Below, in pieces: positions 17,019 to 42,993 of a stretch of 64,000 nt of DNA. Origin of the DNA: Bacteroidales bacterium (lineage in GTDB: Bacteria; Bacteroidota; Bacteroidia; Bacteroidales; F082); contig JAZUCH010000005.1 in the NCBI GenBank assembly GCA_045639025.1, forward strand, positions 2,806 through 66,805, read 5' to 3'. How positions within the stretch are numbered: the stretch's first letter is position 1; the number at the start of each line of letters is the position of its first letter. Position numbers and translations under genes: made by a program. Under the pieces are notes generated by a model. The model was given only the letters and a program-made list of their open reading frames with translations. It made no database searches and was not told where the DNA came from.

Positions 17019-17037
17019 AAGACTATTATTTTAAAGG

Positions 17038-18330: not shown

Positions 18331-18374
18331 ACGCTATATTTTAATCTGTTAATAATCATTCTATCCGTCAGCAA

Positions 18375-25800: not shown

Positions 25801-28800
25801 GCACAATCATGTACAGAAACATTATTTACAATATACAGAGCTCCACCGCCATTTGTACTCAAAGGACTGGAGAGATTGGTATTATATAAAAAACCTGAAT
25901 TATATACTTCTACATTACTGAGTCGAGCTGCAGCTCCCTTATTTACAGAGCGTCCATTCATGAATCTTATACCATCTATTCTATTACGAGTGCCAGATTT
26001 ATTATCCTTAAGATCTCTGATCAAGATTTGTTGCTTATTTTGTCCGTCAAAGACTGTCTTGTTTGTATCGAAGTCACGTAATGATAGGTCGAAGTTTGCC
26101 GCTTCATTACCAACGAAACCACCATATAAGCTGACATTATCTGGCATGATGAATGCTGGATTTGATGCCACGCCATTACCTTTATAAGTACCCTTTGCAA
26201 TCCAGAACTTGATAGGTCTTTCATATTGATATATTCTATCCATAGCGAACTGCAGATATGGAGTTGCATTAGCCCATGAAGAACCATCTTTAGTACCGGC
26301 ACCTTTTTCTGTCACATAGACAATATCGTTAGCATCAGGTATAATCTCATGGTTAATTTCGAAGTTACTTTCATAAGCACCCATATCGATGGAATCGTTT
26401 ATAATACGAGGATTGCCATCAAGGTCTACGTCTGTTACAAGTGAAATTGTAGAACCACGGTTAACACAGACAGAACCATCTTGCAATCTCCAGTCGCCTG
26501 CTCCATAGTTACCTACGCCAACTGCGGTTGTAGGATTTACGAACATCGGATAGTTGATATCATCGCTGCCTGAATTAGCGGCGTTAAGAATGATGTTGCC
26601 TTTACCGACACAACCACCTTCAACAGCAGAATAATTCACTTGTGTGTTATAGTAAGAAACATCAACATCATCCAAATTCAAGTTTGATGTGATGTTACCT
26701 TCTATCTTATTTCCCCAAATAATAGAATTCTCAACAAGTTCATAATTAGAGATACCACCTACTCCATCATAAGCATAGTTATTAACAATAGTAGAATTAT
26801 AATGCTTAGTCTTTGGAGATTTTGAATCTTGAGCACTTGTACCAGCGCCAGCATACGCATCAACGCCGCCATATCTATCATCTTTTACCGCACCATTGTT
26901 ATTGATGAGACAGTTTCTAAATGTAATAGGTCCATAATAACCACCACCAATAGCATTTGTCACTTTATTGTTTCTTATTACAGAATTTATAACAGAAACT
27001 TCTTTTGTATCAGCATATATACCTGCTGCTCCGCATTGTTCACCAAGACTATTCCAGAGACCTTCGATAGCTGCACCGTTCTCTATTATTGAGTTTCTCA
27101 ATTCACCCTTACGCATCAAAACGTTACCACCATAATTACAATATACGAAACCGTTTCTTATTGTGAGACCGTCATAGATGGCATAGTGCATTGGGTCGAG
27201 AGAATATTTGAAGTGAGTGCTATGAGCCTGATGCAATGTTCTTTGGATATTCTGACCGTCGAGGATTGTTGCGTTGTTGACAAGGTCACGTTGTGTAAGG
27301 TCATAGTCGTGAGCCTCGTTACCAACGAAACCGCCATAGATGTCAATACCATTAAGACCGATGAATGCATCTACGTATGGCCAGCCGTTACCGGTGTAAG
27401 TACCTTTGGCAATCCACACTTTTGGATGATTGTCATCATCAGCTGCAAAGTTAAGAGCGAGCTGCAAGTCGTTGATAGCGTTGTCCCAAGAAGAACCTGT
27501 CATATCGCTGCCTGTATTATTTGCATTGACGTAGATGATGTTATTTCCGTCAGGATAGATACGGAAACTGTTTGTTCCATTTGTCTCGTAAGCACCTATA
27601 TCTATTCTGTCTTGTTTTACACGTTTCTCATCATCGAGGTCTTGTTCAATCATATATTCGAGGCGTTCACCCATATTGATACAGATTGAACCTTCCTTGA
27701 TTCTCCAGTCGCCGCCCCAGTAGTTGGCACCCACTTTTTCAGTAGGATTTACGAAGCGTGGTGAGAACATATCGTTGCCGTTTTCAGCAGTGAGGTTGAT
27801 AGTACCGATACCGGCAGCACCTCCTTGGATAGCGCAGTATCTCACATAGATAGGAACATTAGAAGCAGACACCGCAACCTGTTGTGTATTGAGGTCTGTC
27901 TTGTTACCCCACATTATACAATTTATGAACTCGTTGTTGCTTCCTGAGTTTGCGCTATATACACCGCCACCGAGATAATATGAGAAGTTGTTTACCATAG
28001 TACAGTTGAGCAACTGTGATGGCAATGATGAATTACCTATATACATACCTCCACCGTATGATGACTCGGTGAGCACGCTGTTGTTAGCGATGAGACAGTT
28101 GTTGATAGTTGCGTTTTCTCCGTAGATACCACCACCATGTTTTGCTGAACCGGTGAGGTTGTCGATGAGGTTGTTGTTGATTTCGCAATATGTCAAAACT
28201 GAAGATTTACAGAATGCACCGCCACCTTGTGAAAGAGCAGTATTGCCATAAATCTTACAATCAGTTATTTCGCATTTATTGTCAGCATAGATACCTGCAC
28301 CAGCACTACCTTGGTTATTCTTGATGATACAGTTTCTAACCTTAACAAAGTTCTTGACATAAATACCGCCACCTTCTTTTGTTGTATAACCTTCTTGAAT
28401 TGTGAAACCGTCAATTACCGCATTTTCATTAACATTAAAATCCTCATATGCGTTATAGTTACCCAAGACTCTCTGACTTTGTGCACCGCTGAGAATTGTC
28501 TCATTTGTCACGAGGTCTCTGTCTTCGAACTCTATTCCATTCAACTCATTACCAGCGAAACCACCATAGATTTCAACACCTGGTTTTATCTGGAACGCCT
28601 GAGCACTGGATCCGTTACCCATATAAGTACCCTTAGCGACCCATACTTGTTTCTTGGATTCTGACTGGAATGAAGATGCCTTATTGATAGCTTCTTGTAT
28701 ATCCGACATAGCGTCATTCCATGAAGAACCGTCTTTCTTACCAGCACCTGTTTCAGTGACGAACCATATCATTCTTACTTCAAGGTCTAAAGTAACGAGA

Positions 28801-31800
28801 CTATCACATGCAGATCCTTCTGGAGTCCATTGTTTGCTGTAGTGTCCCGACTCTGTCAATATATCGCCATAGAACACATATTCCTCATTTGCAATGACCT
28901 TCATGTGTCTGTAACCGATACATCCGCCTTCGTAAGCACCCATATCTACATTATCATTATAGATACGGTCTTTTCCTGCCAAGTCGAACTCTCCTACAGA
29001 ATATGCATTGTTACCTTTATCGGTGACAGCAGAATTGCTTTGAAGCTGATATGCTCTTCCTTCAGGATCGATAAAGTTGACATAGTTGACACCTTCTTCT
29101 GTTCCTGTGTTATATTTATCGAGGTTAATATTACCTGTTCCTGTGTAACCGCCATGGATACCGCAGTATTCGTATGTATTGTCATAACCCTCTATCTGGT
29201 TAGAATAGTTACGGCTAACATTATTCCACAAGATACAGTTATAATACTTGTTATTATGATTTGTAGATGACAAGGTATCGAAGGCATACATTTCAGTGTT
29301 GTTACCAACGATAGTACTATTCAGAACCTTAGTCCAGTTGATATTCAAACCAGCAAAACGATCTGACTTGTTGTTACTGATTTCACAGTTGACAATACTA
29401 TCACATTGTGTTGCAATACCATCATACTTTCTTGACATTACAATGGCACCACCTTCTGTATGAGCATAATTATCATGGAACTTGGAATATGAAATAACAA
29501 CATTCATTTTACTACTGTTATTATCAGCATATATAGCACCACCTTTAACAGCCACGTTATTATACAACTCACAATTTGTGACTGTCACATTATCTTTCAG
29601 TCTTATAGCACCACCCATATATTCATCAGGGAACGATGTTATTGATATAGGAATACGTTCAAGGTATATAGGTTCAGCATTACCATTCTTGAATGTAAAG
29701 CCATCTATGATTGATTTCTCATAATCATATGTACTTGAATAATGATCAATAGCACGATAATAATCCTTAGCATCCAAAACTGTTTTGTTTTCAAACATAT
29801 CTCTGTCGTTCTTATTGAATGTTGCTGAATTTTCATCACCTGCAAAACCGCCATAGATTTTTGTTCCAGGCACTATTGTGAACATCGCCCAACCTTCATT
29901 AGCAGACATTGTATAAACACCTTTCTTCATCCAGATTTCAGGACGTGGGTCCATTGTAGCTGCATAGTTGATAGCTGTCTGAACATCAGCAGTGGCGTTA
30001 TTCCAAGAAGAACCGTCCTTGCTGCCTTTAGCGGTCACATCTACATAAATGACATTATTTGCATCTGGAACAATGATGTCTTCTCTTGAATAATCTGATT
30101 CCTGTGCTCCAATATCAACTCTACCTTGTCTTACACGGCTCTTGCCTTTGAGGTCGTATTCTGTAAGATCATATAGTGCATCTGTACCTGCATTGATACA
30201 TACAGAGTTAGGAGTAAGAGCAGTACCGTCAAGTGACAATGTATAATCTTTATTTATGGTTATATTACCTTCTCCTGGATAACCTCCTTCAACTGCACAA
30301 TAACGTAAATTTGAAAGTCCCACCCACTCTCTGGTTATTTTCATTTCATCATCAAAGAAGTAATAATAGTTGGAAAGGTTATTTGAATTACCATTAACTT
30401 TATTACCATAAATGATAGTATTTACTATTTCGTCAAACTTACCATAGAAAGCGCCACCAGATACTTTAGCACTGTTGTTTATGACAGTACAATTATAGAG
30501 ACTAATGCTACCGCCTATCTTACGGAAAGCACCGCCATTACCGTCTTCTTCACCATCAATAGTTCTTGTAACTTTATTATTTGAGATAACAGTATTATAA
30601 TAGCGTCCGTCTCCCCATCCGCCTACAATTTTAGGGTCTTCTTGATATACAGCACCTGCATTGTTGCTGATTATGGTATTATATACATCTTGGAAACTTA
30701 CAGCAATCCTCTCGTAACCATATTCATCCTTAAACGACTCTGCAGCCCACATAATCTTAATAGCACGACGCTTATTATTGGAGATACTACATCCATCTAA
30801 CATTGTATAAGTCTGTACTTCTACACCAAGTCCATCATTGTTATCAATATTACAATTGAAGAATGATGTATTTTCTGAGTGTATTACAGGAGTACCTTGG
30901 TTATGATGGATGTTACAATTTTCAAATGTATTGATTGATTTGCGTGCATTACAGTTATCAAAATCAGCAGCATCAATCCAAATAGGTCCTGGACCGTATT
31001 CTGAATTAGTACAGTTATCCGTAATGATACAATTTCTTATATAGAAATGCTTTTTCATAAATAAAGCAGTTCCTTTTGATACACTCTGACGTGAAAAACC
31101 TTTAGTGATGGTGAAACCATCAATGATTACAGGTGTTTCTTCTGTTGCGTCTTCTTCCATGCAGATGACACGTTGTATGTAACCGCCGTCGAGAATTGTC
31201 TCGTTAGCTGTAATATCACGTTGTGTGATGTCGTAGTCGGCAAACTCAGTTCCTGTGAAACCACCATAGAGACGTACGTTTGGTTTCAAGATGAAAGCAT
31301 TGACTGATGTACCATCGCCTCTATATCTTCCCTTAGCAACCCATATTTCTGTTAAGTTACCATTATCTTTTATTGAATCGCATGCCGTCTTAAGTTCGGT
31401 ATAAGCGTTTTCCCATGAAGTACCATTATTAAGACCCTTAGCTTCTGCATTGACATAAACGATGTGTTTGAAAGTGAGATGCATAACAATGATACTATCG
31501 CAATCATGCTTTGCTTCTTTACGATGGATATATATTCCAGGTTCGGTAAGCCATTCTCCATAGAAAGGATATTCATCCATCATAGTAACGACTTTATATT
31601 CACGTTTCAAGACACAGCTGCTTTCTATAGCACCTATATCAACAGTACCGTCACCGACACGTTCTTTTCCATACGCATCAATTTCTTCTGTCACTACAGA
31701 GTTGTCACCAGCGTCAATCAAAACTGAATTTTCACCAAGTTCATAGTTGTTGCCTTCTGGTGAAATGAAATTAGGATATTCATAAGTCTGACTTGTACCG

Positions 31801-34800
31801 CTGTTGCTTGGAGCAAGAGCAATAACTTCATCAATGCCATCCAAACCTAACTCAACAGCACAGTTGTTAAATGAATACTTTTCAAGATTATTTCTATCAA
31901 AGTCTGATGACACACCGATGTCATTAGTGTTATTCCAAACAACTGTATTATGGAACACACCTCCACTAATCATCTTATTTGTTGAAACATCCGCTGTTGT
32001 CTTATTACTTACAATATCACAGTTGATAAATTTATCATCATTAGTAAACTTATGGTTTACAACGGTAAAGCCTTCATTATCCGCGATTATAGTATTAATA
32101 TAGGTGTTTGCATATTGGACTCCGTTTACATTTGTCTTGAGAAGTGTAGCGCCTTTATTGCCTATAATCTCAGTATTCTTGACTGTAGTTGCAAAAATTT
32201 CAAAGATTGTAACTGAATTGTTTTCCATGTCAGGCATATCTTCAAATGTGCGGTTACCTTCTATATGACATTTATCCAACGTGCTGCCGTAAGTTTGTAT
32301 CTTACCTATATTATTCTTGAATGTTGAGTTTATAATATTGGAATTCACAGCATAGAGATAAGAACTCCTGGTATTATTTTTATCGCTTGTGACTGTGACT
32401 GCATTACTAATATTGATATTATCTGCAGTGGCACCTACTAATGCGAGATTGCTAGCCATCATCCAATTAGAATAAGCACCATCTAATGAAGCATCTGTAT
32501 CAATTCTGTTATTTTCAAATGTTATGTTCTTCAATGTTGTGTTTCCGAGGACTACAGCACCAGCACCAACAAGATGGTAGATTCCCATTCCACCATTAAG
32601 ATTACTTGCCTTACAATAAACCGAGTTATAACTATGGAAATCTTTTTGGTTAAGATAACCGTTTCTAATTACGAAACCGTCCCATGTCGTTGTCTCTCCA
32701 TCAGCGAAAGGCTCATCTTGGAATAAGACACGCTGTGTATTCTGTCCGTCAAGGATTGACTTGTTGTTTTCTAAATCTCTATCCTCAACACTTGTTTCTG
32801 TTCCTGCGAAACCGCCATATACATTGACATTCTCAACGATATTAAATGCATTGTTGCCAACTACACCATCACCATAATATGTTCCTGCTTCAACCCATAC
32901 TTCTGCTATAGGATCAAAGGTATTTGCCTGAGCGATAGCATATTGTAAATAAGGTGTCGCATTGCTCCATGAAGAACCGTCTTTCAATCCTGAACCTTCT
33001 GTACTTACATAGATGACTCCATCTGTTGGATTAAGACTCATTACAGAAGCTGCATCTGATGACATCGCTCCTATCGCCTTGCCGTCATCGGCATGACCGA
33101 AGAGTATTGAATTTGCCTTAAGACTCCAGTCGTATGTCTCTTGATTGAAGATGGTACCGAGGTCGGTGATAGGATTGACAAAACGAGGTGAGAAGATATC
33201 GCTATCATTAGCTTCTGTGATACGGATGTTGCCGATACCATTGTATAAAGCACCGTCAATGGCACAATAATCTACATTAGACAAATTATCTTTTGCTATG
33301 AAGTTATTGTCGAATGATGAGATTGCGTTGTTCCATAATACGCTGTTCTTAATATCTGAAGATTTTAATGCAATGATAACATTATTATATTGATAATAAT
33401 AATCCTCTGCATTGTCAAATTGTGATACTTCCCCTCCTGTAGAGAATGTCACCATATTATTCATCAAGTTTGAATTGCTGATGACACTATTGTCCTTAGC
33501 ATAGACTATAGCGAAGAAACCAGAAGTTCCGCCACTGATAGCATTATTGAATATCAATGAGTTTGTAATATTAGTTTCAATAGCTTCAATCATAGAATAC
33601 TTAGATGTATTCTTATAGATATGTGTCTTTTCAATATTACTTGCTGTTGCCTTGATGAGGTTACGGTTGGTGGTGTTGCCATAGACAAAACATGAGTCTA
33701 ATACAGCATTGTCAAGTTCTATAAGAGGAGAATAACCGCTAGTATTATTATCAACGAACTTACATCCTTTCACTGTTGAAGAAGCTTTTACCTTGAAGTT
33801 TTGGCCGCTTTGCAAATTGGTGATTGTACAGTTTTGCAATAAACCGCCATTGACTTCTGTCTTAACTGTAATCTCAGAATTTCTCAAGATGCAGTGATTA
33901 TTGATGACAGCATTATAACCATTGATGCAGAATCCGTCCCAGATAGCAGGATTTTCCGCTGTGGCTGGATTGTCTGTTGATTTGTCTAATACGTTGTAAC
34001 TTTTTGCTCCGTCGAGAATTGTCTTGTTGTTTTCTACATCGCGTTCTGAGAACAATGTCTCTGTTCCTGCGAAGCCGCCATATACTTCAACGCCTGAAAC
34101 CATTGGGAAGCGAGTGCTGCTATTATAACCTGAATAAGTTCCTGCAGCTACCCAGACTTGTCTGCTATCTACGCCGCTCTGAGCGAATGCAGCCATAACA
34201 GCGTCGTTGATATTATCCATAGCATTGTCCCATGAAGAACCGTCTTTGCTGCCGGCACCTGTTACTGTGACATATATCACAGAACTGCTTACTCTCACGT
34301 CCATAACGACCAAGCTATCGCATGAAGCATCTATAGCCCAACGTTTCTGATATTGTCCTGGTTCTGTGATGACAGAACCATAGAAGTTGATACTGCCGCC
34401 TTGTGCTAAAGTCTTGGAGATATGTCTGTATTTTACGCAATATCGTTCAAAAGCACCCATATCGATGGTTGTTCCGTTGATACGTTGCTTGCCGTTGAGG
34501 TCATACTCTGTGACATTGGCATTTTCATTATTACCGGCATCAACAGCGACTGAGTTGTCTTGAAGTTCGAAGATATTGTTTGCACCATCGAGGAAACGGA
34601 TGTAGTTAGCACCTCGAACATTGCCATCATTATCTAATTCAATGTTGATGTTGCCCTCTCCTTCCCAACCGCCTTGGATTGCAGAATAAGTGACATTGAC
34701 GCTGTTTCCTGTTCCAATTTGTGAGTATTCTCCGTTGTGAGTATTGCCCCAGATAATACTGTTGACCACTGTTGTACTATTCAAATATGCAGCAGGATAG

Positions 34801-37800
34801 ATTGCATTGTAATTATATTCTACACTGTTCTTTACGATGGTAGAGTTGACGATAACACCTGATGATGCTTCTACACCTGAATATAATCTCGCTTTGTTAT
34901 TGTTTACGAGACAGTTGACCATTGTAGATGCACCAAGATAGAGACCGCCGCCTTCACCTTTAGTTTCATTATTATAAATCTTGGTGTTTGTAATCTTTGC
35001 ATACGATATATAAGCACCGCCAGCATATGCAGAAGCGTAATTCTTATTATCTCTGATGACACTATTGTCTATCAATGAGTGGTTGTTCGCATCCACCATA
35101 ATACCTGCGGCATAACCATTTTCACTGACATTATCATAAATAATGAAGTTTCTCAAAGTGACATAATCCTGGATATATGCACCTGCCGCTTTGTAACTTT
35201 CCTCATCATAACCATTTCTTACAGTGAAACCATCCCATAATGCAGCTGTTGTTTCTGTGAAGTCTGACTCTTGATGTAAGACGCGTTTTGTATTATCACC
35301 ATCTAATATAGTTGCATTTGTGATAAAGTCTCTTTGTGAGAGGTCATAGTCGTGAGACTCATCGCCTGCGAAACCGCCATATACCTCAACTGCTGGTGCC
35401 AGTCTGAACGCATAGACTGAATTTGCATCGCTTTTATATGTTCCACCTTTAACCCAGACCTTTGATCCATAGATATTAGCAAGGTCGAGAGCTAACTGCA
35501 AGTCATCGGTTGCGTTAGTCCATGAAGAGCCGTCTTTGCTGCCAGCACCTGTTGTTGTTACATAAATAATATTATTATCTGAAGGAACTATATTAAGTGC
35601 AGGAACATGACTTGATTCGTATGCACCCAAATCCACTGCACCTTGTTGAACACGTTCGTTACCTATAATATCAGTTGCAGGCAAACTTACAATTGTCTTA
35701 GAACCTTTATTGATACAGATGGAGTTTTCTGTGAGTGTATAATCTCCGTTTTCAGGATCTGTGAAGCAAGGATAGAATCCATTGTCACCTGTGTTTTCTG
35801 AATTGAGATTTATGACACCTATTCCGTTATAACCTCCTTCAACAGCAGTATTTCTAATATCAAAATTATTATTATTATTATTGACATTTATTTCATCACT
35901 AGTGTTACCCCATAAAATACTGTTATAGATTCTTACCTCAGAACCACTTACATAGATACCAGCACTTGAAAAACTTGAACTGTTTATATTATTGACAACT
36001 GTATTATTAATAAATAAGGTGTTATCCGAAAGATATACCGCATAACCATTACTGCCACTTGATTTGTTATCTGTTATCAAACAGTTTATCACACTGACAT
36101 AACCAATAGCATAGATAGCAGAAGTGTATGTGGTAGATGTGTTGTTTCTAATGATACAGTTACGAAGTATTGTAAAATCACGGAGACTGACACCTGCGCC
36201 ACGATCTGTTGTGTAACCGTTTTGTATCACAAAACCATCTATTACAGAAGTCGTGTTTTGTGTAAAGTCATTTGCCTGATACAAGACACGTTTCTTGTTC
36301 TTACCATCGAGTATTGTCTGGTTAGCAGAGAGGTCTCTTTGTTCTAATGCTGTCTCTGTTCCTGCGAAACCGCCATATATCTCAACGCCTTCTGCTATAA
36401 TGATATAATGGTCGCCATCTTCTTCATTGCCGTATGTTCCTGCTTCAACCCAAACCTGAGGTTTATTATTATTTGCAGCAGCAACATTAATCGCCATCTG
36501 CAAATTGGAAACAGCGTTTTCCCATGAAGAACCGTCAGCTTCACCTCTTTCTTCCGTGGCAACATAAATGACATTGTTTGCTCCAGGAGTTATAGAAGAA
36601 CCTTTAAATGCAGATTCGTAAGCGCCTATATCTATCTTTCCGTTTTGGATACGGGCATTGCCTGCAAGGTCTTTCTCTGGAAGTGTAACCCCCAAGCCTT
36701 CTGTATTACCTTTATTGATGGCAGCAGATCCTTCCTGCAATGTCCAGTTGCCGCCTGAATATCCAGAGCCAGCACCTTCTGAAGGAGCGGTAAATTTAGG
36801 ATAACTAACTTCTGTAGAAGTTCCAGTGTTATCCGCAGATAATGTGATATTACCTGTACCATAACCGCCTTCAATGGCACTATAAGTTACATAAGTCAAT
36901 GTTGTAGGATGAATCTGATTTGATAAAGTTCCTTTCTTGTTACCCCATATTATACTATTGATGATAGTAGGATTACCTTGTCCATATATACCAGCACCAT
37001 TATAAATACTTGATGTACCTGTAAGATAATTGTTTACAATATTACAATTGACAATCTTACTATTTGAATTACTATATACACCACCTCCATTGTTAGATGA
37101 CGTATTATTGGCGATATTACATCCTATCATATCAACATAGGATTGCATAAATACACCTCCACCATTGTACCCTGAAGTATTATTTTCTATCCTACAATTT
37201 ACAACTATTGATAATTTTTTAGTATTAGTATATCCACTGACATAAATACCACCACCATTACCTTTACTGCTATTACGATAAATATTACAATCCTCTATTT
37301 TAGAAATATTATTTGTATTTGGTTTCACAATATACACACCACCACCTTGGGAATATGTTGAAGAACTACCATTAGTTTCATTATCATATATTTCGCAACC
37401 ACTAATGTAACCATCTTTCATATAAACACCAGCGCCAAATACATCACCACTACCAGTATTCTTAAGATGGTTCTCATAGACCTTACAGTTTTCTAATGTT
37501 CCGCCATTTACATAAATACCACCACCATACACATCTGTACTAGTTGCTAATGTTATACTGCCATTTCCTGTTATCTTACAGTTTCTCAATGTTCCGTAGG
37601 CATTGATGTATGCGCCTGCACCATTGAGCATTCCTCCTCCGTTCTTAATTGTGAAGCCGTCCCATACCGTTGCTGTCGCCTCGGTATATGCCTTCTCCTG
37701 ATACAAGACTCGCTGTGTGCCTTGTCCGTCCAATATTGTCACATTGGTCTCATAGTCTCTCTGTTCCAATGATGTCTCTGTTCCTGCAAAACCGCCATAA

Positions 37801-38096
37801 ACGTCAACGCCTTCTACCATAGTAAAAACATTGGCAGAAGTGCCGTCGCCTGTATATGTTCCTGCCGCAACCCAAATCTCAGGATAAGAGGCATGCTCTG
37901 CTATGATAGATGCCGCCATATTAAGGGCTACATTCAAATCGGTTACTGCATCATTCCATGATGTACCTTCATTAGAACCAGCCGCATCAGCATCGACATA
38001 AATCGTTGAGAGATTAGGCACACTCTGCGCCTTAAGATTTATAGTCGCTAATAAAATTAAACTTGTTGCTAACAGTAAAAGTCTTTTCATAAGCAT
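19830..38096 (-). CDS. 6088-aa secreted giant protein: ten tandem choice-of-anchor-Q-like right-handed beta-helix modules, then FN3-like and multiple CARDB-like domains; no recognisable T9SS CTD
   Basis: A single uninterrupted 18.27-kb ORF with signal peptide MLMKRLLLLATSLILLATINLKAQ. Ten module starts have the form (I/V)YV....G..DGSSW.NA...LQ.A......(I/V)WVA.GTY....(V/I)YGGF.G.E....RD...N.TILDG. Each module ends D(L/I).G..R...G..D(I/M)GA(Y/F)E. FN3 lies around 24890-25160 (DLSVPEDKLTFTTADVTWTSNG..YFVKVRAICNE). CARDB-like units run from about 24465 to the stop (PDLHITAMDCSYAQTGQPMTVEWTVRNDGHGPT, PDLIATNVIVPYEHFAGDSITISWQLINQGG ...). Confidence 0.85.
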   Translation of the reverse strand: MLMKRLLLLATSLILLATINLKAQSVPNLSTIYVDADAAGSNEGTSWNDAVTDLNVALNMAASIIAEHASYPEIWVAAGTYTGDGTSANVFTMVEGVDVYGGFAGTETSLEQRDYETNVTILDGQGTQRVLYQEKAYTEATATVWDGFTIKNGGGMLNGAGAYINAYGTLRNCKITGNGSITLATSTDVYGGGIYVNGGTLENCKVYENHLKNTGSGDVFGAGVYMKDGYISGCEIYDNETNGSSSTYSQGGGVYIVKPNTNNISKIEDCNIYRNSSKGNGGGIYVSGYTNTKKLSIVVNCRIENNTSGYNGGGVFMQSYVDMIGCNIANNTSSNNGGGVYSNSNSKIVNCNIVNNYLTGTSSIYNGAGIYGQGNPTIINSIIWGNKKGTLSNQIHPTTLTYVTYSAIEGGYGTGNITLSADNTGTSTEVSYPKFTAPSEGAGSGYSGGNWTLQEGSAAINKGNTEGLGVTLPEKDLAGNARIQNGKIDIGAYESAFKGSSITPGANNVIYVATEERGEADGSSWENAVSNLQMAINVAAANNNKPQVWVEAGTYGNEEDGDHYIIIAEGVEIYGGFAGTETALEQRDLSANQTILDGKNKKRVLYQANDFTQNTTSVIDGFVIQNGYTTDRGAGVSLRDFTILRNCIIRNNTSTTYTSAIYAIGYVSVINCLITDNKSSGSNGYAVYLSDNTLFINNTVVNNINSSSFSSAGIYVSGSEVRIYNSILWGNTSDEINVNNNNNNFDIRNTAVEGGYNGIGVINLNSENTGDNGFYPCFTDPENGDYTLTENSICINKGSKTIVSLPATDIIGNERVQQGAVDLGAYESSHVPALNIVPSDNNIIYVTTTGAGSKDGSSWTNATDDLQLALDLANIYGSKVWVKGGTYKSDANSVYAFRLAPAVEVYGGFAGDESHDYDLSQRDFITNATILDGDNTKRVLHQESDFTETTAALWDGFTVRNGYDEESYKAAGAYIQDYVTLRNFIIYDNVSENGYAAGIMVDANNHSLIDNSVIRDNKNYASAYAGGAYISYAKITNTKIYNNETKGEGGGLYLGASTMVNCLVNNNKARLYSGVEASSGVIVNSTIVKNSVEYNYNAIYPAAYLNSTTVVNSIIWGNTHNGEYSQIGTGNSVNVTYSAIQGGWEGEGNINIELDNDGNVRGANYIRFLDGANNIFELQDNSVAVDAGNNENANVTEYDLNGKQRINGTTIDMGAFERYCVKYRHISKTLAQGGSINFYGSVITEPGQYQKRWAIDASCDSLVVMDVRVSSSVIYVTVTGAGSKDGSSWDNAMDNINDAVMAAFAQSGVDSRQVWVAAGTYSGYNSSTRFPMVSGVEVYGGFAGTETLFSERDVENNKTILDGAKSYNVLDKSTDNPATAENPAIWDGFCINGYNAVINNHCILRNSEITVKTEVNGGLLQNCTITNLQSGQNFKVKASSTVKGCKFVDNNTSGYSPLIELDNAVLDSCFVYGNTTNRNLIKATASNIEKTHIYKNTSKYSMIEAIETNITNSLIFNNAISGGTSGFFAIVYAKDNSVISNSNLMNNMVTFSTGGEVSQFDNAEDYYYQYNNVIIALKSSDIKNSVLWNNAISSFDNNFIAKDNLSNVDYCAIDGALYNGIGNIRITEANDSDIFSPRFVNPITDLGTIFNQETYDWSLKANSILFGHADDGKAIGAMSSDAASVMSLNPTDGVIYVSTEGSGLKDGSSWSNATPYLQYAIAQANTFDPIAEVWVEAGTYYGDGVVGNNAFNIVENVNVYGGFAGTETSVEDRDLENNKSILDGQNTQRVLFQDEPFADGETTTWDGFVIRNGYLNQKDFHSYNSVYCKASNLNGGMGIYHLVGAGAVVLGNTTLKNITFENNRIDTDASLDGAYSNWMMASNLALVGATADNINISNAVTVTSDKNNTRSSYLYAVNSNIINSTFKNNIGKIQTYGSTLDKCHIEGNRTFEDMPDMENNSVTIFEIFATTVKNTEIIGNKGATLLKTNVNGVQYANTYINTIIADNEGFTVVNHKFTNDDKFINCDIVSNKTTADVSTNKMISGGVFHNTVVWNNTNDIGVSSDFDRNNLEKYSFNNCAVELGLDGIDEVIALAPSNSGTSQTYEYPNFISPEGNNYELGENSVLIDAGDNSVVTEEIDAYGKERVGDGTVDIGAIESSCVLKREYKVVTMMDEYPFYGEWLTEPGIYIHRKEAKHDCDSIIVMHLTFKHIVYVNAEAKGLNNGTSWENAYTELKTACDSIKDNGNLTEIWVAKGRYRGDGTSVNAFILKPNVRLYGGFTGTEFADYDITQRDITANETILDGGYIQRVICMEEDATEETPVIIDGFTITKGFSRQSVSKGTALFMKKHFYIRNCIITDNCTNSEYGPGPIWIDAADFDNCNARKSINTFENCNIHHNQGTPVIHSENTSFFNCNIDNNDGLGVEVQTYTMLDGCSISNNKRRAIKIMWAAESFKDEYGYERIAVSFQDVYNTIISNNAGAVYQEDPKIVGGWGDGRYYNTVISNNKVTRTIDGEEDGNGGAFRKIGGSISLYNCTVINNSAKVSGGAFYGKFDEIVNTIIYGNKVNGNSNNLSNYYYFFDDEMKITREWVGLSNLRYCAVEGGYPGEGNITINKDYTLSLDGTALTPNSVCINAGTDALYDLTEYDLKGKSRVRQGRVDIGAQESDYSREDIIVPDANNVIYVDVTAKGSKDGSSWNNATADVQTAINYAATMDPRPEIWMKKGVYTMSANEGWAMFTIVPGTKIYGGFAGDENSATFNKNDRDMFENKTVLDAKDYYRAIDHYSSTYDYEKSIIDGFTFKNGNAEPIYLERIPISITSFPDEYMGGAIRLKDNVTVTNCELYNNVAVKGGAIYADNNSSKMNVVISYSKFHDNYAHTEGGAIVMSRKYDGIATQCDSIVNCEISNNKSDRFAGLNINWTKVLNSTIVGNNTEMYAFDTLSSTNHNNKYYNCILWNNVSRNYSNQIEGYDNTYEYCGIHGGYTGTGNINLDKYNTGTEEGVNYVNFIDPEGRAYQLQSNSAVTDKGNNAYSVGEFDLAGKDRIYNDNVDMGAYEGGCIGYRHMKVIANEEYVFYGDILTESGHYSKQWTPEGSACDSLVTLDLEVRMIWFVTETGAGKKDGSSWNDAMSDIQEAINKASSFQSESKKQVWVAKGTYMGNGSSAQAFQIKPGVEIYGGFAGNELNGIEFEDRDLVTNETILSGAQSQRVLGNYNAYEDFNVNENAVIDGFTIQEGYTTKEGGGIYVKNFVKVRNCIIKNNQGSAGAGIYADNKCEITDCKIYGNTALSQGGGAFCKSSVLTYCEINNNLIDNLTGSAKHGGGIYGENATINNCLIANNSVLTESSYGGGMYIGNSSLPSQLLNCTMVNNFSYYLGGGVYSANSGSNNEFINCIMWGNKTDLNTQQVAVSASNVPIYVRYCAIQGGAAGIGTINLTAENGNDMFSPRFVNPTEKVGANYWGGDWRIKEGSICINMGERLEYMIEQDLDDEKRVKQDRIDIGAYETNGTNSFRIYPDGNNIIYVNANNTGSDMTGSSWDNAINDLQLALNFAADDDNHPKVWIAKGTYTGNGWPYVDAFIGLNGIDIYGGFVGNEAHDYDLTQRDLVNNATILDGQNIQRTLHQAHSTHFKYSLDPMHYAIYDGLTIRNGFVYCNYGGNVLMRKGELRNSIIENGAAIEGLWNSLGEQCGAAGIYADTKEVSVINSVIRNNKVTNAIGGGYYGPITFRNCLINNNGAVKDDRYGGVDAYAGAGTSAQDSKSPKTKHYNSTIVNNYAYDGVGGISNYELVENSIIWGNKIEGNITSNLNLDDVDVSYYNTQVNYSAVEGGCVGKGNIILNAANSGSDDINYPMFVNPTTAVGVGNYGAGDWRLQDGSVCVNRGSTISLVTDVDLDGNPRIINDSIDMGAYESNFEINHEIIPDANDIVYVTEKGAGTKDGSSWANATPYLQFAMDRIYQYERPIKFWIAKGTYKGNGVASNPAFIMPDNVSLYGGFVGNEAANFDLSLRDFDTNKTVFDGQNKQQILIRDLKDNKSGTRNRIDGIRFMNGRSVNKGAAARLSNVEVYNSGFLYNTNLSSPLSTNGGGALYIVNNVSVHDCAFRDNTTTASGGAILVANGINDTISYCYIGLNKADIRGGGIYGVQCKIYNSVIIQNSAKEGGGVFTYGKIVNSTVVNNVADGDAQGAYAGGIYASGEFPIYNSIVWGNRAGNYISNIRHSHYGPDFQYSACERDEFVPDPATNIILETENSGSNVALNYVSFERLEDGWYNLSETSDCIDKGNKDLTHYLDFDYDGNERVRGANIDMGACEHNPTSCKMISDLSVPEDKLTFTTADVTWTSNGTEAEWLVYFDRAGENSPTLMTVDTTYITIDSLSPNLEYFVKVRAICNEIEMSPYSNPVYFTTECNPDSVVWVNYFETDNLLPENDQALQANSKVLFSWDHIEGAESYELWLWRVDDGHGLAEPDFPVAYNITNNYHTIDLKASVYQGYGRYPRLLPYIPIEEQLPGYLEQTLEEDIAYYAWKVVAYRECAAIETDTMYFNTALPDLHITAMDCSYAQTGQPMTVEWTVRNDGHGPTPVGETWYDYIVLSYPIDWTTESFTQVPYESFIIDRVENLTALQVGESYTNTATITVPDDMYGAVFLFVLSNWNPNAGLGLNFAQYGGVFPNPYTPNLYGEGKPYGFMSGYNKKAGNASFEEINGVDNFFYKAIEVDIPPIPDLIATNVIVPYEHFAGDSITISWQLINQGGAAFENIPVTDNIYMSTKDVFDDDAIMLGAFRDTISIERNDTLTRTAKFITNEKDIDTFYFFVETDVRDQVYESLFEHNNISFCSEHPTVFMLVPPADLTIENIVISSDTLSPNEKFKISYTVKNIGYKNTNENSKWSEDTCAMLPPIYGKPWRDEIYISKESEFDNSAEELMTYNNNKILWTLGELEAIIDTIDVFVNCKFPEIIPSDTITVDSDEWNQYLQEKEIQDLKREALRHEKLELYKNSYTVEKEVLIPEEYEDGLYYIHILTDQGDNIFEYNKEDNNAISDTVRVVLPDLYVYGLTLDENRDTVRYIVKNIGQGQIIDGQMSNTVNYNNAQIFNNRIESINLNPNDSLIMKLPIHLECNFYTDNTLKVESRYVGNEKTFTNNNQTIDLQLFNPDFFADELVLISRNEITYTITNRGYVDFNDTVNIRYYLGLSPELNFITAEELLSKYEPMSLAIGETVTITEYVTMPQSAEGIYYLYVSVNDDENVCEGDNTYTNYIVSESFEVSLRPYSDLEILHVDMPESAMAGDTIVLPYTIGETQGVEFYNLRETIVTNRLYISSEPQFNINNAKYLCSNSMTYGDIIDFSHYGNGCKGYFEFVLPADITTAQYLYIVVDAEDVVYEHIGENNNIYQSPLLDVGLYDCDLEVRYLARLIGDIYWGDVVSYEYEVRNNGTKPTVKSYFNTIYLSEDNVLDGGDIKIRTFRANRLKAGESQIGVIDVTIPYGIGPDVYIIMVADDGNNNPDTNPSNNIACMGENVYSVPVPDLEISNVDIVTEYPAAGQPIRVAYTVTNIGDKVAASWIDKIFWSRNTYDNGILGGINYNDNLNLDPGQSYNDTIELIIPLPNTGNFALYIDVNASNGERMLFEVNYENNLGMHTVNVDHNPPGDIIVEAISHPYMVTSGDDMEIKYHLKNLGPNKLEGKGCNDVIYLSTDQTFSPDDILLGNIDHDLVLPNYSYEEYTFTADISGIPEGEYYIIIYGDARNSFYEVDENNNRGYSAYPFEVQVPELFFDTPITFKLKDLVHKDFKLNINGNINETVRIHVSSLDAEIGAVNNIYVKHNSIGSNMDYDFSTDGDMEGNSEVYIPTTRAGYYGISVMGNDPLDDEQMVTIEANILPFEIRSVESNTAGNTGKVTVKLIGSKFRYDMPVRLFMGNPADSTMYNIIEAEELYYINFNEVCVTFDMTGAEEGVYSIEAYNYCAGYTYLMNSFVVVPGLPENLSTNLIIPDGLRLNRYCILTLEYGNIGNTDIVNPKIRLCSLAGAWIGLERGEINVHRTELDIPIGMEGEPEGILRPGVRYTVPIYCFTNDGLGFVIYTNDEIYQFEQLKDEVE

Positions 38097-38168: not shown

Positions 38169-40358
38169 TCATCGCTCAAAGCATTTATTCAATAAAATTT
38201 TTTGTGTATTAATTCCTTTATCGTCAATTTTCTGAATGATATATACGCCTGCGCTATATCCGTTTGTCTGAACAGAATGAACATCGTCTCTGCTAAACAC
38301 ACGACGTCCAGTCACATCGTATATGTTAATCTGCGCATTACCATTTATATCGTCAATGATTATCTCACCATTATTTATATATGCGAAATGGCTGTGAGCT
38401 GTGGGCTGTGAGCTGTGAGCCATTGTCAATACAAATCTGTCACTGTCGTTATCTTCTGAATGAATAAAGGTATATGACTCTGTCTGAAGATTTACTTTTG
38501 CTCCTGTCTGTTTATCTTCCAGGATGATATTATCAAATTCGTTTCCTATTTCACTAAGAGAAATGGTATATCTTGACATACTACCTGCTTCAAAATTCAA
38601 AGGAAGTGATTTCTCATCGTCGATATAAACCACTGTATAATTTCCTACACCTTTATTAATATATAGAGATGGAGCTGATTCATTTAAACTGAACATCTTG
38701 AAGACATCGTCGTTGTCGCCAATAACTACCGCTATTTCATCTTGTCCTGATGCGCCATTGACTCTTACCTTGAAGATATTTTCGTCATTGTCTTTTCTGA
38801 AAGCTGATTTAGTTCTGGTTCTTATATCATTAGTCATCACGAAATCACCTGGAGTTTTTGCTTTCACGAAGAATCCTTGACAAGGTGCAATATATTGTGA
38901 GCCGCCGTTTGTCGCCACGCCACCAAGTGTGTAAGTGATGTAGTTATTCACGTCATCGTCATAAATCCATACAGTCTGAAGTTCCAGCATATCGCGATTC
39001 CAGCCTTTTGTTTCCCAGTCGATGTAACTAGGATAAGGATTTCCGAGGAGGTTGAAGCCTGTATATCTTTCTATTACAAATTCTCCGTCAGTGCTACATG
39101 AAAGAGGATATGTCACATCGCCATTATTCAAAACGCCTGTAAATTTCTTGTAATCCTCATTTTCGTAAGCCACGAGATAACCTCTTCCCTTTGCAAAGCT
39201 AGATCCGTTATCTGTATAAAAATCATTTGTCGTTGAATTGTCTTTTTTCTGGTTGTTCCATGTTGAGTTAAATTCCGACCAGGAATAGAAGTCGTAGTTT
39301 TCTTCTGTAGGAATGAAACTCTCAATCGTCTGATTTACGACAGGAGAAGAGATGAAATGCCAGTCGGCGCTCCAGTTTCTAGAAATACTGCTGTTATCGA
39401 TATAGCAATTCACTTTTGCTATGACATCATCATCATTATGAATCAAAGAACCTATACCGTTGATGTCTGCGTCCACTATCAAAGCGTTTTCATCTGTATT
39501 TGCGATATCGCCTATTATCTCAAGAGCTCCTGTTGATGTTATTTTCAAAGTGACATCTGGCAATATCTCCACATCTTTCACTATATAATTCGAGGTAGCG
39601 TCGAGGTCTTCTGCCACTATAATATCATCTATCATTTCTGGATTTGATGAAGGAAGTTCTGTCGCTGGCTGAGGATCGGTCCAGCCTTCACATACGAGTT
39701 GCCAATTAGATATCTCATTCCAGTCTTTGTCTGTTCCGATAAATTTATATTTGATTGTATAATAATCAACGACGCCAGCATTAAGGTTTGTATTTGAAGA
39801 AGAATACGTAATAAAGAAATCACCTACGACATTCAATTCTGTTCCGATTTCATGGTCATAAAAACGAAGTACTATATCGTCATTTTCATTGCCATAAATC
39901 GTAAGAAATAAAAGATACATGCTTCCTTGTTTCCTTATGAATGCCCTACCTCTCACCTCATCACCGCAGAATGCACCAATCTCGATGTTTTCACCAGCTA
40001 ATTCTCCGTCAATCTTAATCTGACCATAAACTGTCATGTTAGTTCCATCAGACGACTCGACAGGATTATCAAAATAAAAATTCTGAGCCACAGCAGATGC
40101 GTTGAAACTCAGAATCAATATCAATAAGACAAGTAATGACTTATTGTTTTTTTTATTGCGATTTGTACGTGATTTTATTGTCAGATAGCCCGCACCCAAT
40201 AATGACAGAGCAAACAGTCCATTACCGAGAGGTACCGGAGATTGAAAATTATCATTCAATCCGTGAGATTTTGGCAGACCAGGCGCAAAGATCTCATCAG
40301 AGCTTCTGTAGTATTCATTATTATTATAATTAAAGAAACTATCAGACTGAGCTTTCAC
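38169..40358 (-). CDS. 729-aa exported protein with a T9SS type-A C-terminal sorting domain. As sequenced it starts at a GTG inside a G8 tract and is probably the frameshifted body of a longer ORF starting at ATG 40437.
   Basis: C-terminus ...NAQINIYDVTGRRVFSRDDVHSVQTNGYSAGVYIIQKIDDKGINTQKILLNK is a typical Por CTD. An internal signal-like segment is KSLLVLLILILSFNASAVAQ. The ORF-track start is GTG at 40358. See the poly-G feature and finding. Confidence 0.75.
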   Translation of the reverse strand: MKAQSDSFFNYNNNEYYRSSDEIFAPGLPKSHGLNDNFQSPVPLGNGLFALSLLGAGYLTIKSRTNRNKKNNKSLLVLLILILSFNASAVAQNFYFDNPVESSDGTNMTVYGQIKIDGELAGENIEIGAFCGDEVRGRAFIRKQGSMYLLFLTIYGNENDDIVLRFYDHEIGTELNVVGDFFITYSSSNTNLNAGVVDYYTIKYKFIGTDKDWNEISNWQLVCEGWTDPQPATELPSSNPEMIDDIIVAEDLDATSNYIVKDVEILPDVTLKITSTGALEIIGDIANTDENALIVDADINGIGSLIHNDDDVIAKVNCYIDNSSISRNWSADWHFISSPVVNQTIESFIPTEENYDFYSWSEFNSTWNNQKKDNSTTNDFYTDNGSSFAKGRGYLVAYENEDYKKFTGVLNNGDVTYPLSCSTDGEFVIERYTGFNLLGNPYPSYIDWETKGWNRDMLELQTVWIYDDDVNNYITYTLGGVATNGGSQYIAPCQGFFVKAKTPGDFVMTNDIRTRTKSAFRKDNDENIFKVRVNGASGQDEIAVVIGDNDDVFKMFSLNESAPSLYINKGVGNYTVVYIDDEKSLPLNFEAGSMSRYTISLSEIGNEFDNIILEDKQTGAKVNLQTESYTFIHSEDNDSDRFVLTMAHSSQPTAHSHFAYINNGEIIIDDINGNAQINIYDVTGRRVFSRDDVHSVQTNGYSAGVYIIQKIDDKGINTQKILLNKCFER

Positions 40359-40365
40359 CCCCCCC
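40358..40365 (-). promoter_or_regulatory. G8 homopolymer (C8 on the plus strand) at the 5' end of the first gene of the giant operon; candidate slipped-strand phase switch or homopolymer sequencing error
   Basis: The plus strand reads ttcaCCCCCCCCgtc. ATG 40437 opens a 31-codon ORF, MRNICCLAKPLVVIIIFLLSVNQDGGGESSV*, that passes through the tract. A G7 or G10 tract would fuse it in frame to the 729-aa ORF. Confidence 0.7.
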
Positions 40366-40462
40366 GTCTTGATTTACAGAAAGTAAGAATATAATAATGA
40401 CAACCAAAGGTTTAGCTAAACAACAAATATTTCTCATAAAAACCTATTTTTAATTCAACATA

Positions 40463-40470
40463 CAAAAATA
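40463..40470 (-). promoter_or_regulatory. -7 promoter box (TATTTTTG) upstream of ATG 40437
   Basis: The plus strand reads caaaaata, about 26 bp upstream of ATG 40437. This points to 40437 as the real translation start of the first operon gene. Confidence 0.5.
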
Positions 40471-40527
40471 GGCTATAATATTTTAAAAGTCAATAAGTAA
40501 TATTACATATTTTTTTAATAATTCAAA

Positions 40528-41172
40528 TTACAGTTTAACAATGCCATGTTCTATTGACCATTTCAACAATTCTATAGTATTGTTAATGCCGAGCTTTTTA
40601 AAGATATTAGACTTGTGCATTTCTACAGTACGATGGCTTATATTTAGACGAGAAGCTATTTCCTTCGACAGCAATCCATCACAACACAAAACTATCACTT
40701 CTTTTTCTCTTTCAGTAAGTTCAGCTAATGAAGATGATGGCGTATCTTGGTTACTGCGTCCCATTATCTTAGTGACGTCAACGCCATAATAACTAATGCC
40801 AGAATGTACATTATGTATTGCTGTTTTAATTTTCTCAATATTAGTAGTCTTTGGCACAAATCCGTCTATTCCAACCTTAATAAGTCTATATATTATTTCA
40901 TCTTCATTTATCGATGATAAAATAAGTATCTTGAGTTTAGGGAAATCTTTTTTCAGTTTTCTCACAGCATCTTCACACGACATTCCTGGCATTTGAATAT
41001 CAAGCAAAACCACATCAACTTTTTTATCTGGCAATATAGAAAACAGTTCGTCTGCCGAAGATGCTTCTCCAGCTACATTTATCTCGTCCTTATATGACAT
41101 CAATGAAGCTTTGACGCCCAACCTCATCAAAGGATGGTCATCAACTAAAATGACATTTATCATATCACACAT
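40528..41172 (-). CDS. LuxR/NarL-family two-component response regulator
   Basis: The receiver domain has INVILVDDHPLMRLG ... DVVLLDIQMPGMS ... KILILSS. The C-terminal LuxR HTH reads LTEREKEVIVLCCDGLLSKEIASRLNISHRTVEMHKSNIFKKLG. It overlaps the kinase stop by 8 nt; an alternative ATG is at 41163. Confidence 0.9.
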   Translation of the reverse strand: MCDMINVILVDDHPLMRLGVKASLMSYKDEINVAGEASSADELFSILPDKKVDVVLLDIQMPGMSCEDAVRKLKKDFPKLKILILSSINEDEIIYRLIKVGIDGFVPKTTNIEKIKTAIHNVHSGISYYGVDVTKIMGRSNQDTPSSSLAELTEREKEVIVLCCDGLLSKEIASRLNISHRTVEMHKSNIFKKLGINNTIELLKWSIEHGIVKL

Positions 41173-42967
41173 TTCCTTTCTTTAATTTAAATGAAAACTC
41201 ACTGCCTTTTCCTGGAGTACTTTCTATATGCAACTTAGACTCGCAAATACTCAACATCTTATTTACTATTTCCAATCCGATTCCATTGCCATCCTCACCG
41301 TTTGTGCCAGACGTAGTAAATGTTTTTCCAGACAACAATAATTTCTTCTTTTCCTCTGAAATGCCAACACCATTATCTTTAACGACTATTCTTATACAAT
41401 CGTCCTCATCCATAAAATACAAACTCACTTCAGTATTTTCATAACTAAATTTCAACGCATTGCTTATAAGATTCCTTAATATCGTTGACACCATTTTAAT
41501 ATCAGAAAAGACATAACAATTATCAGAATCAGACGCCTCGTCTTCTTTAACTATTATATTTTTCTTTTTGAGCATTGTATTATACAATGGAACTATCTCA
41601 TCAAAGCACAATGCCTTAACATCGAATTTTAACGGGTTGTACTCTATTCTTTTCGCCTCATATCTAGTCCATTCTAGAAGATTTGTCAACAACTCTTCCA
41701 AAGAACTTACAGAATCTGTCAAAGCATCAATATACATCTTAAGTTCTTCATTGCTGAACGAATCAAGATTATCATTCAACTGATGCAACACAAGTTTCTG
41801 AGCTATGACAGGATTTTTCAGGTCATGCGACAATACCGACAAGGACTTTGTTCGGGTGTCATTCAGTTCTACCAAAGCTGTATTTCTTCTCTTTCTTGCG
41901 ATTCCGTTTATAATCAAAAGCACGACTATGACAATAAGCAATGCTATTACTAAAAACATCAATTGAAATATGTTTTTGTTATATTTCACTTCCTTCTTAT
42001 ACATTTCTATTTCAGTTTCCTTTTCCTGCATATTATACTTAGCTTGGAAATCATTAAGCATCTGCTGGTTTTTCTCATTGAATATCGAATCTTTTATATT
42101 CACATATTGTTCGAAATAATCTATGGCAAGTCGTGGGTTTATATCTTTATACACTTTAAACAATGACATTGATATTTCTTGTATCAGCAATCTATTATAG
42201 ATATTTTTCGCCAACTTCAAAGATTTCTCATAATAATATATTGCCGAATCTATTTTATCTTCCTGTCTGTTCAAATCTCCCAAAGAATGTAACACTATTG
42301 ACATTCCATATTTGCTTCCAGCTTTTTCAAAATATTGATATGCCTCCACTTCGCAGCGTTTAGCCTCCTCGGTACGATTTGTAGCCTGATACACTTCACC
42401 GAGCTGATTCAAGCGAATAGCAATCTTGTTTGGACGTCCAATCTCTCTATCTATAAGCAGGCCTTCTTCAGCAGAAGCTATCGCCTCTTCGTATCTGCCC
42501 ATCTTCAAGTATGCCGTCGATATATTTCCCAGACGAACAGCGAGCTGCGACTTCCTGCCTAATTCTCTCTCAATATCAATACTTTTGTTGAAATAAACAG
42601 AAGCAATACTATCCATATCATTAACCATATACACATTACCGATATTATTCAAGACAGAGCTTTGCAAGTCTGGCATTCTAAGTTTTATGGCCACATCGTA
42701 TGCTTGCATATTATATTCAAGAGCTTCATCCATGTTACCTAGCCTTTGGTTAGAGAATCCCATATAATAAAGGCTGTTGAATACCAATACGGTATCTGTT
42801 GTATTTATTGATTTTTCATATAAATCTTTAGCAAGATTACAACACTCCAAATACTTTTCAGCTTTAAATAGCTTTGATACATTATTGTATATTGTGTCAA
42901 GGTTTTCCGACTTCAAACTGTAGCAAGAAAACAATAATAAAAAAAACAACAGCAATTTTGATTTCAT
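41165..42967 (-). CDS. TPR-repeat sensor histidine kinase
   Basis: Signal peptide MKSKLLLFFLLLFSCYSLKSE, periplasmic TPR repeats, one TM segment (IFQLMFLVIALLIVIVVLLIINGI), HisKA H-box LSVLSHDLKNP, and HATPase N and G boxes (NLISNALKF, DNGVGI, GNGIGL). The start is set at ATG 42967 because the ORF-track start at 42988 is TTG. Confidence 0.88.
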   Translation of the reverse strand: MKSKLLLFFLLLFSCYSLKSENLDTIYNNVSKLFKAEKYLECCNLAKDLYEKSINTTDTVLVFNSLYYMGFSNQRLGNMDEALEYNMQAYDVAIKLRMPDLQSSVLNNIGNVYMVNDMDSIASVYFNKSIDIERELGRKSQLAVRLGNISTAYLKMGRYEEAIASAEEGLLIDREIGRPNKIAIRLNQLGEVYQATNRTEEAKRCEVEAYQYFEKAGSKYGMSIVLHSLGDLNRQEDKIDSAIYYYEKSLKLAKNIYNRLLIQEISMSLFKVYKDINPRLAIDYFEQYVNIKDSIFNEKNQQMLNDFQAKYNMQEKETEIEMYKKEVKYNKNIFQLMFLVIALLIVIVVLLIINGIARKRRNTALVELNDTRTKSLSVLSHDLKNPVIAQKLVLHQLNDNLDSFSNEELKMYIDALTDSVSSLEELLTNLLEWTRYEAKRIEYNPLKFDVKALCFDEIVPLYNTMLKKKNIIVKEDEASDSDNCYVFSDIKMVSTILRNLISNALKFSYENTEVSLYFMDEDDCIRIVVKDNGVGISEEKKKLLLSGKTFTTSGTNGEDGNGIGLEIVNKMLSICESKLHIESTPGKGSEFSFKLKKGNV

Positions 42968-42985
42968 ATAAGATATATTATTTCG

Positions 42986-42993
42986 CAAATATA
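42986..42993 (-). promoter_or_regulatory. -7 promoter box (TATATTTG) for the kinase / response regulator genes
   Basis: The plus strand reads caaatata, 19 bp upstream of ATG 42967. Confidence 0.5.

Follow-up and report, generated by a model that had tools for sequence, protein, structure and literature searches.

The DNA analysed here (hereafter the window) is a stretch of 64,000 nucleotides from a Bacteroidales bacterium (GTDB lineage F082), corresponding to positions 2,806 to 66,805 of contig JAZUCH010000005.1 in assembly GCA_045639025.1. Our subject is a run of eight guanines in the 5' part of a gene that encodes a predicted type IX secretion system (T9SS) substrate and stands first in a putative five-gene operon; all window coordinates given below refer to the minus strand. 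The only promoter-like match just 5' of the ATG begins with the hexamer TTGACT (40488–40493) and continues with a Bacteroidetes-type −7 box, TATTTTTG (40463–40470), the Bacteroidetes −7 consensus being TAnnTTTG. The elements follow one another as TTGACT, 17 nt, TATTTTTG, 25 nt, and the ATG at 40437. Alignment of 15 loci from divergent lineages showed that the TTGA of the upstream element, the TA..TTTG of the −7 box (15 of 15 loci, approximately 26 nt 5' of the ATG), and the ATG itself are all invariant.

In the window, this ATG opens a reading frame of only 31 codons (40342–40437), translated as MRNICCLAKPLVVIIIFLLSVNQDGGGESSV*, which comprises a signal peptide, the residues GGGESSV, and a TGA stop codon at 40344–40342. 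The G8 homopolymer GGGGGGGG (40358–40365; C8 on the plus strand) begins 72 nt 3' of the ATG, inside the reading frame, and its length sets the frame of what follows. The gene body is a 729-codon open reading frame (ORF; 38169–40358) in the +1 frame relative to the ATG. In the window this body is out of frame, and the earliest start available to it is a GTG to which the run contributes its final G. The public annotation starts the 729-aa protein at this GTG, and the sequence P0001 is identical to the 729-aa product. Deletion of one G (G7) yields a continuous ORF of 755 codons. By arithmetic, the lengths G7 and G10 are in frame, whereas G6, G8, and G9 lead to a stop after 26–31 codons. The coordinates that the initial annotation of this DNA had assigned to the −7 box, the ATG, the stop, the G8 run, and the 729-codon ORF are each correct to the base; our codon reading also agrees with its statements that the GTG is the only available start of the 729-aa ORF and that one G fewer gives a continuous ORF of about 755 aa.

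A search with the G7-repaired protein recovered over 100 close homologues; relatives derive from metagenome-assembled gut genomes that carry the labels Bacteroidales, Lentimicrobiaceae, and Candidatus Limimorpha. Among them, 84 protein clusters of approximately 750 aa begin with the same kind of N-terminal signal peptide and cover 99% of the repaired protein. By this comparison, the 755-aa reading is the normal form of the gene family, and the ATG and signal peptide are part of the gene, because the 84 homologous clusters show the repaired form. The codon after the tract is GTA rather than GTG in four related lineages, so the GTG is not conserved as a start; it is a valine codon that merely doubles as a start codon in the window.

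Comparison of related loci revealed that the tract differs in length both between and within species. In the window's species, which carries a response regulator gene upstream (tract context GAC-Gn-TGAAAGCT), the window has G8 and is out of frame, while a second assembly with an identical promoter region (L019) has G6 and is likewise out of frame, with an immediate TGA. In a sister species with a dehydroquinase gene upstream (GGT-Gn-TGAAAGCT), four loci are G7 and in frame (L001–L004) and two are G8 and out of frame (L005 and L006); six further protein clusters of this sister species begin exactly at the tract. A third species, with a Piwi gene upstream (GGC-Gn-TAAAAGCT), includes one G7 locus in frame (L099) and, out of frame, two G8 loci (L114 and L115) and one G9 locus (L007). 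Other lineages are in frame with either G7 (L105–L107) or G4 (L100–L104; five of five contigs). Over 2576 bp, L002 and L004 (G7) are 99.46% identical to L006 (G8), with no indel other than the tract. The initial annotation had proposed that tract length be compared in relatives, and the comparison shows that it is not fixed, with G6, G7, G8, and G9 standing on otherwise conserved flanks, an outcome that favours switching. The locus shows two of the properties by which contingency loci are recognized: its length is polymorphic among close relatives, and the repeat number moves the gene between an intact (750–755 aa) and a truncated (26–31 codons) form.

The run is also more than chance would give. 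It is the sole G or C run of at least 7 in the 64-kb window (37% GC), where a first-order Markov model predicts 0.11 runs of at least 8 per window; these figures bear out the earlier remark that a G/C homopolymer of 8 is conspicuous in such AT-rich DNA. GGG accounts for 15 of the 1313 glycine codons (1.1%) in the ORFs of the window, and GGG-GGG for none of the 122 Gly-Gly dicodons. Across 149 kb of related loci, G/C runs of at least 7 were confined to this tract and to a second-site tract in the same gene. Although GGG is such a rare codon, the run persists between lineages separated by synonymous divergence (dS) of 0.3–1.1, and lineages lacking the tract have Asp-Leu-Tyr at the matching residues. 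Because the run is kept despite the rarity of GGG, and because tract-less lineages encode other residues there, its persistence against codon bias points to selection for the DNA run rather than for the glycines.

The second-site tract lies in another lineage, which has no run at the signal-peptide site (…NQELYAQ…). There, a motif that reads PLGNG in the window has become PIGGGN, and a tract with the context CCAATC-Gn-TAATGC occupies this motif, approximately 140 nt further into the gene. L010 and L018 carry G8 and are in frame, whereas L008 and L009 (G7) and L013, a Candidatus Limimorpha genome (G6), are out of frame. The off alleles of this tract have left remnants on both sides of the break, namely 13 protein clusters of 617–673 aa downstream and six clusters of 72–83 aa upstream, the latter ending in '…PIGGVMRFLSYYQ*'. 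No conserved start follows the break, and gene callers choose four different downstream starts. That a second tract arose independently within this one N-terminal region speaks for selection on variable expression of the operon as such. A run of eight adenines (40147–40154), in frame in the window within the basic cluster NRNKKNNK, had been considered as the source of truncated homologues of 618–650 aa; this candidate was rejected since the DNA shows the second poly-G tract instead, and the A8 run showed no variation in the loci read.

Frame-broken protein clusters were concentrated in tract-bearing lineages (25 of 35); lineages with no tract, a short one, or an interrupted one had 1 among 75 (Fisher p = 1.2e-15). 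This value overstates the significance, since neither the protein clusters nor the metagenome contigs are independent samples and some studies contributed several of them, but the contrast remains a large one. We consider it probable that the G run is a real, slippage-driven homopolymer contingency locus and that the window shows its OFF state (G8). The earlier suggestion that the position of the tract suits slipped-strand ON/OFF switching of the first gene gains support from the length variation, the second tract, and the frame-break contrast. Besides the dependence among clusters, one further point weighs against a switch: even between the most similar in-frame and out-of-frame alleles there are 13 substitutions, so the data represent polymorphism between strains and not switching within a clone. 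The sole frame-broken member of the tract-less lineages, P0086 (754 aa), has its N-terminus in another frame up to '…VLYLYNNEHY'; its indel lies near the FFTYNNNE codons and may be either a real mutation or an assembly error.

The initial annotation had regarded a homopolymer sequencing error as equally likely, and a sequencing or assembly error would mean that the true genome carries G7 and an intact gene. The window does appear to be metagenome-assembled, judging from its relatives, and an exact-sequence look-up placed the 729-aa product on no other contig, both of which leave room for an error. However, out-of-frame lengths recur in independent assemblies and across assemblers (MEGAHIT-type k141 contigs, scaffolded assemblies, and Logan contigs), three different wrong lengths (6, 8, and 9) are involved, and the other assembly of the window's own species has G6 rather than G7. 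The second tract behaves alike, while tract-less lineages are nearly never broken. Moreover, off forms are as common as in-frame ones, which would not be expected from consensus errors. An error of this kind now seems very unlikely indeed.

The frequency of off forms could instead reflect one-way gene decay, in which the tract is only a mutational hot spot and the off alleles are pseudogenes heading for loss. Off alleles are at least as frequent as in-frame alleles in tract-bearing lineages, and some close relatives are always in frame with an interrupted tract (P0002 and P0003, 'DGEV') or with G4 (L100–L104), as this explanation would allow. To set against it, every out-of-frame allele retains an open body of 724–729 codons together with an intact ATG and an intact signal peptide, and no second disabling mutation was found in any of them. 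The ratio of nonsynonymous to synonymous substitution rates (dN/dS) was 0.149–0.159 for pairs in which both members are out of frame (window/L019, L005/L006, and L114/L007), compared with 0.11–0.31 in comparisons that include in-frame alleles. Since dN/dS among off alleles is low and no second lesion has accumulated, the gene body appears to have been kept functional over time, as expected for a transient off state. The maintenance of the run across lineages despite the rarity of GGG, and the independent evolution of the second tract, also speak against decay, which we regard as unlikely. The gene body is itself mosaic. Between strains whose promoter and signal-peptide regions are identical, the body diverges by 5–10%, and its closest relatives are often found in another N-terminal lineage (P0001–P0111 bodies; L001–L007, L099, and L114), which suggests recombination between alleles.

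Purifying selection on the off alleles would also fit a different explanation, namely that an off allele is still expressed, through slippage of RNA polymerase or the ribosome or through (re-)initiation at the GTG; the product would then be without the first signal peptide but retain an internal one. The body does contain such a signal-like segment of its own, which has an invariant A|Q site and is described below. In the G6 allele (L019, around 1573–1582), furthermore, the short ORF's stop codon and the body's GTG overlap (GGGTGA); an overlap of stop and start is a layout that allows coupled re-initiation, and it could permit termination-reinitiation here. Recoding sites, however, keep one fixed off configuration, whereas most relatives of this gene are in frame and tract lengths vary in both directions; programmed recoding was set aside on these grounds. 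The replacement of GTG by GTA in four lineages and the lack of a conserved start after the break at the second tract also tell against initiation within the body, and we judge continued expression of the off allele to be very unlikely, though least so for G6.

The preferred reading, a slippage-driven contingency locus, would work as follows. Replication slippage would add or remove a G in the run at the end of the signal-peptide codons. In the ON state, G7 (or G10) would put the 729-codon body in frame with the promoter-proximal ATG and the signal peptide, and in the OFF state G6, G8, or G9 would end translation after 26–31 codons and presumably abolish the protein. Switching within a population would be frequent and reversible. 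Premature termination might in addition lower the expression of the next gene, which encodes a 6088-aa protein, and of the later genes through polarity, since the genes are tightly spaced and neither a terminator nor a second promoter-like motif intervenes.

The tract gene is the first of five tightly spaced genes, separated by gaps of 72, 9, 44, and 19 nt, in an operon of 31 kb. All five proteins have an N-terminal signal peptide, the first of them only in the repaired frame. The second gene (19830–38096), 72 nt 3' of the first, encodes the 6088-aa secreted protein, with Beta_helix and CARDB domains, and the three further genes (9405–19820) encode proteins of 481 aa, 430 aa (with thrombospondin type 3 repeats, TSP_3), and 2537 aa. 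The best NCBIfam resemblance of the 430-aa repeat protein (17038–18330) is to the myxobacterial cell-cohesion protein MtsC, far below the cut-off. Wherever a related locus extends far enough, the homologue of the tract gene is followed by a giant-gene counterpart of 6000–7600 aa. No terminator-like site was found between the first gene and the giant gene, and no TAnnTTTG motif within 500 nt upstream of the giant gene; for these two reasons the two genes may lie on a single transcript, although the evidence is weak.

Upstream neighbours vary between lineages. In the window, a two-component system consisting of a TPR/FimS-like histidine kinase and a LuxR-type response regulator (40528–42988) lies directly upstream, and the same response regulator is found upstream in several related lineages. 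In the third species, a Piwi-domain (prokaryotic Argonaute) gene of 732 aa lies directly 5' of the operon (L007, 1–1345; L099, 1–417; L114 and L115, 1–61).

The body of the tract gene ends in a T9SS type A C-terminal sorting domain (38172–38369), detected with TIGR04183 (27.9 bits against a cut-off of 23); the Pfam sorting-domain model PF18962 scored below its cut-off (19.3 vs 27). The C-terminal half is homologous to the T9SS substrate RemZ of Flavobacterium johnsoniae (PDB 8gl8_D, E = 4e-16). Structure prediction from 39 homologues gave a mean predicted local distance difference test score (pLDDT) of 39.9 and a predicted template modelling score (pTM) of 0.24, with only the sorting domain modelled confidently (pLDDT ~80). 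We infer that the product is a surface protein.

Genomes of Campylobacter, Helicobacter, and Haemophilus/Neisseria hold dozens of poly-G contingency tracts, and C. jejuni lacks mismatch repair; here, unlike in those phasomes, the tract was found only in this gene in a survey of the 64-kb window and the related loci. In Campylobacter jejuni, Helicobacter pylori, and the Haemophilus/Neisseria phasomes, the G/C homopolymers measure approximately 7–11 and lie in the 5' part of surface-related genes (PMC11868660; PMC5084427); the present locus resembles them in its length polymorphism among strains and in an ON/OFF state set by the reading frame. The closest parallel in position is pilC of Neisseria gonorrhoeae, for which a passage of PMC5354566 that cites Jonsson et al. 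1991 describes frameshifts in a homo-guanine run of signal-peptide codons that switch the gene. Both loci place poly-G in the signal-peptide codons of a gene for a surface structure. Unlike pilC, the present gene belongs to Bacteroidota and not to Proteobacteria, encodes a T9SS cargo heading a 31-kb operon with a 6088-aa protein, and carries an additional membrane module and a second signal peptide; its switching, moreover, is a prediction from sequence.

Phase variation in Bacteroides is known from site-specific invertases, invertible promoters, and shufflons (PMC11868660). The proposed switch resembles the invertible promoters and shufflons of Bacteroidales, within the same order, in the stochastic on/off control of surface structures, but the mechanism differs. 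No report of repeat-mediated frameshift switching in Bacteroidales or in T9SS genes was found in the literature searched, which was covered in part, and in a paper on Ornithobacterium hominis a 'putative phase variation mechanism', not further specified, is mentioned in connection with adhesin-like genes. The RemZ homology, the type A sorting domain, and the presence of a multi-thousand-residue surface protein in the operon recall the RemZ/RemA and SprB operon of F. johnsoniae. We know of no poly-G control of the F. johnsoniae RemZ, RemA, or SprB genes, and to our knowledge a two-signal N-terminus has not been described there. The mechanism is classical; the new points are the taxon, the target, which is a T9SS gene at the head of an operon for giant adhesins, and the convergence shown by a second tract. 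Phase variation in gut Bacteroidales is known almost entirely from DNA invertases, and a slippage switch, if true, would add a second mechanism to the order. It would also mean that the metagenome annotation '729 aa, GTG start' records a switch state and not the gene, and the tract could serve as a ready-made marker for following the on/off population dynamics of an uncultured gut lineage in metagenomic reads.

The N-terminal region proved to be more complex than the plain N-terminal signal described by the initial annotation. That signal peptide holds up, but behind it come a small membrane module and then another signal peptide, internal to the protein. The first signal peptide (SP1; 40350–40437, ATG at 40437–40435) has its hydrophobic core at residues 3–23 and an A|Q cleavage site that is restored only at G7 or G10. 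The glutamine of this site, Q30, does not vary in alignments of 16 and of 39 homologues. The module (40140–40358) contains SDSFF, APGLPxxHG, PLGNG, a transmembrane helix, and a basic cluster; it spans approximately 70 residues, and the order xDxFF, APxLPxxHG, PLGNG, hydrophobic helix, basic cluster is conserved. The internal signal-peptide-like segment SLLVLLILILSFNASAVA|Q (40086–40139) follows, with a hydrophobic core at residues 98–117 of the repaired protein. A117 and Q118 of this segment are invariant in the homologue alignments, and a low-confidence structure model predicts a helix there. Both A|Q sites fit the Q-rule for signal peptidase I sites in Bacteroidetes (PMC5837995, PMC10653852).

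Relatives of the module (P0131–P0186) also occur outside this gene. Some are free-standing proteins of 81–90 aa in Bacteroidales, one of which is encoded directly 3' of a 790-aa Cleaved_Adhesin/T9SS protein that is a distant homologue of the gene body. In other cases the module is fused before unrelated bodies that have their own internal signal, including lipoprotein signals (…LTQCKK). Pfam and NCBIfam scans of the module and of its free-standing and fused relatives gave no family above threshold. Sub-threshold scores for the free-standing relatives were 14.9–16 bits for PID_CTERM (cut-off 26), 12 for PEP_CTERM (16), and 13 for LPXTG (15.9), and the window's own module segment had no match to PEP-CTERM, PID-CTERM, or LPXTG-type sorting models. 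A role as a PEP-CTERM-like sorting signal was rejected, as no model exceeded its cut-off. By these searches, the module is an uncatalogued Bacteroidales family. Together with the internal signal peptide, it offers a lead of its own on the construction of secreted proteins in Bacteroidales.

This architecture may allow one ORF to yield two processed products. We tentatively propose, as a possible but doubtful arrangement, a two-in-one precursor in which SP1 would export the module, the internal signal would export the T9SS cargo, and signal peptidase would separate the two. Under this proposal poly-G tracts would have evolved twice, each at a different point of the module, and a single slippage event would gate the module, the cargo, and possibly the giant operon, while G6 could give a third, partly coupled state.

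Some features were noted around the free-standing module relatives. P0131, P0132, and P0141 end in 6–8 lysines, which implies that their genes close with long poly-A tracts; these could be another slippage-prone site. Beside one free-standing small-protein gene, a neighbouring protein is called as 401 aa in one contig and 447 aa in another (L108 vs L110); a frameshift was considered as the cause of this difference and rejected in favour of sequence replacement. Approximately 150 nt are replaced between the otherwise identical contigs (L108, 6250–6410; L110, 5779–5960), which shifts the called start of the next gene, and a tyrosine-integrase-like gene (Phage_int_SAM_5) adjoins the replaced stretch on the opposite strand.

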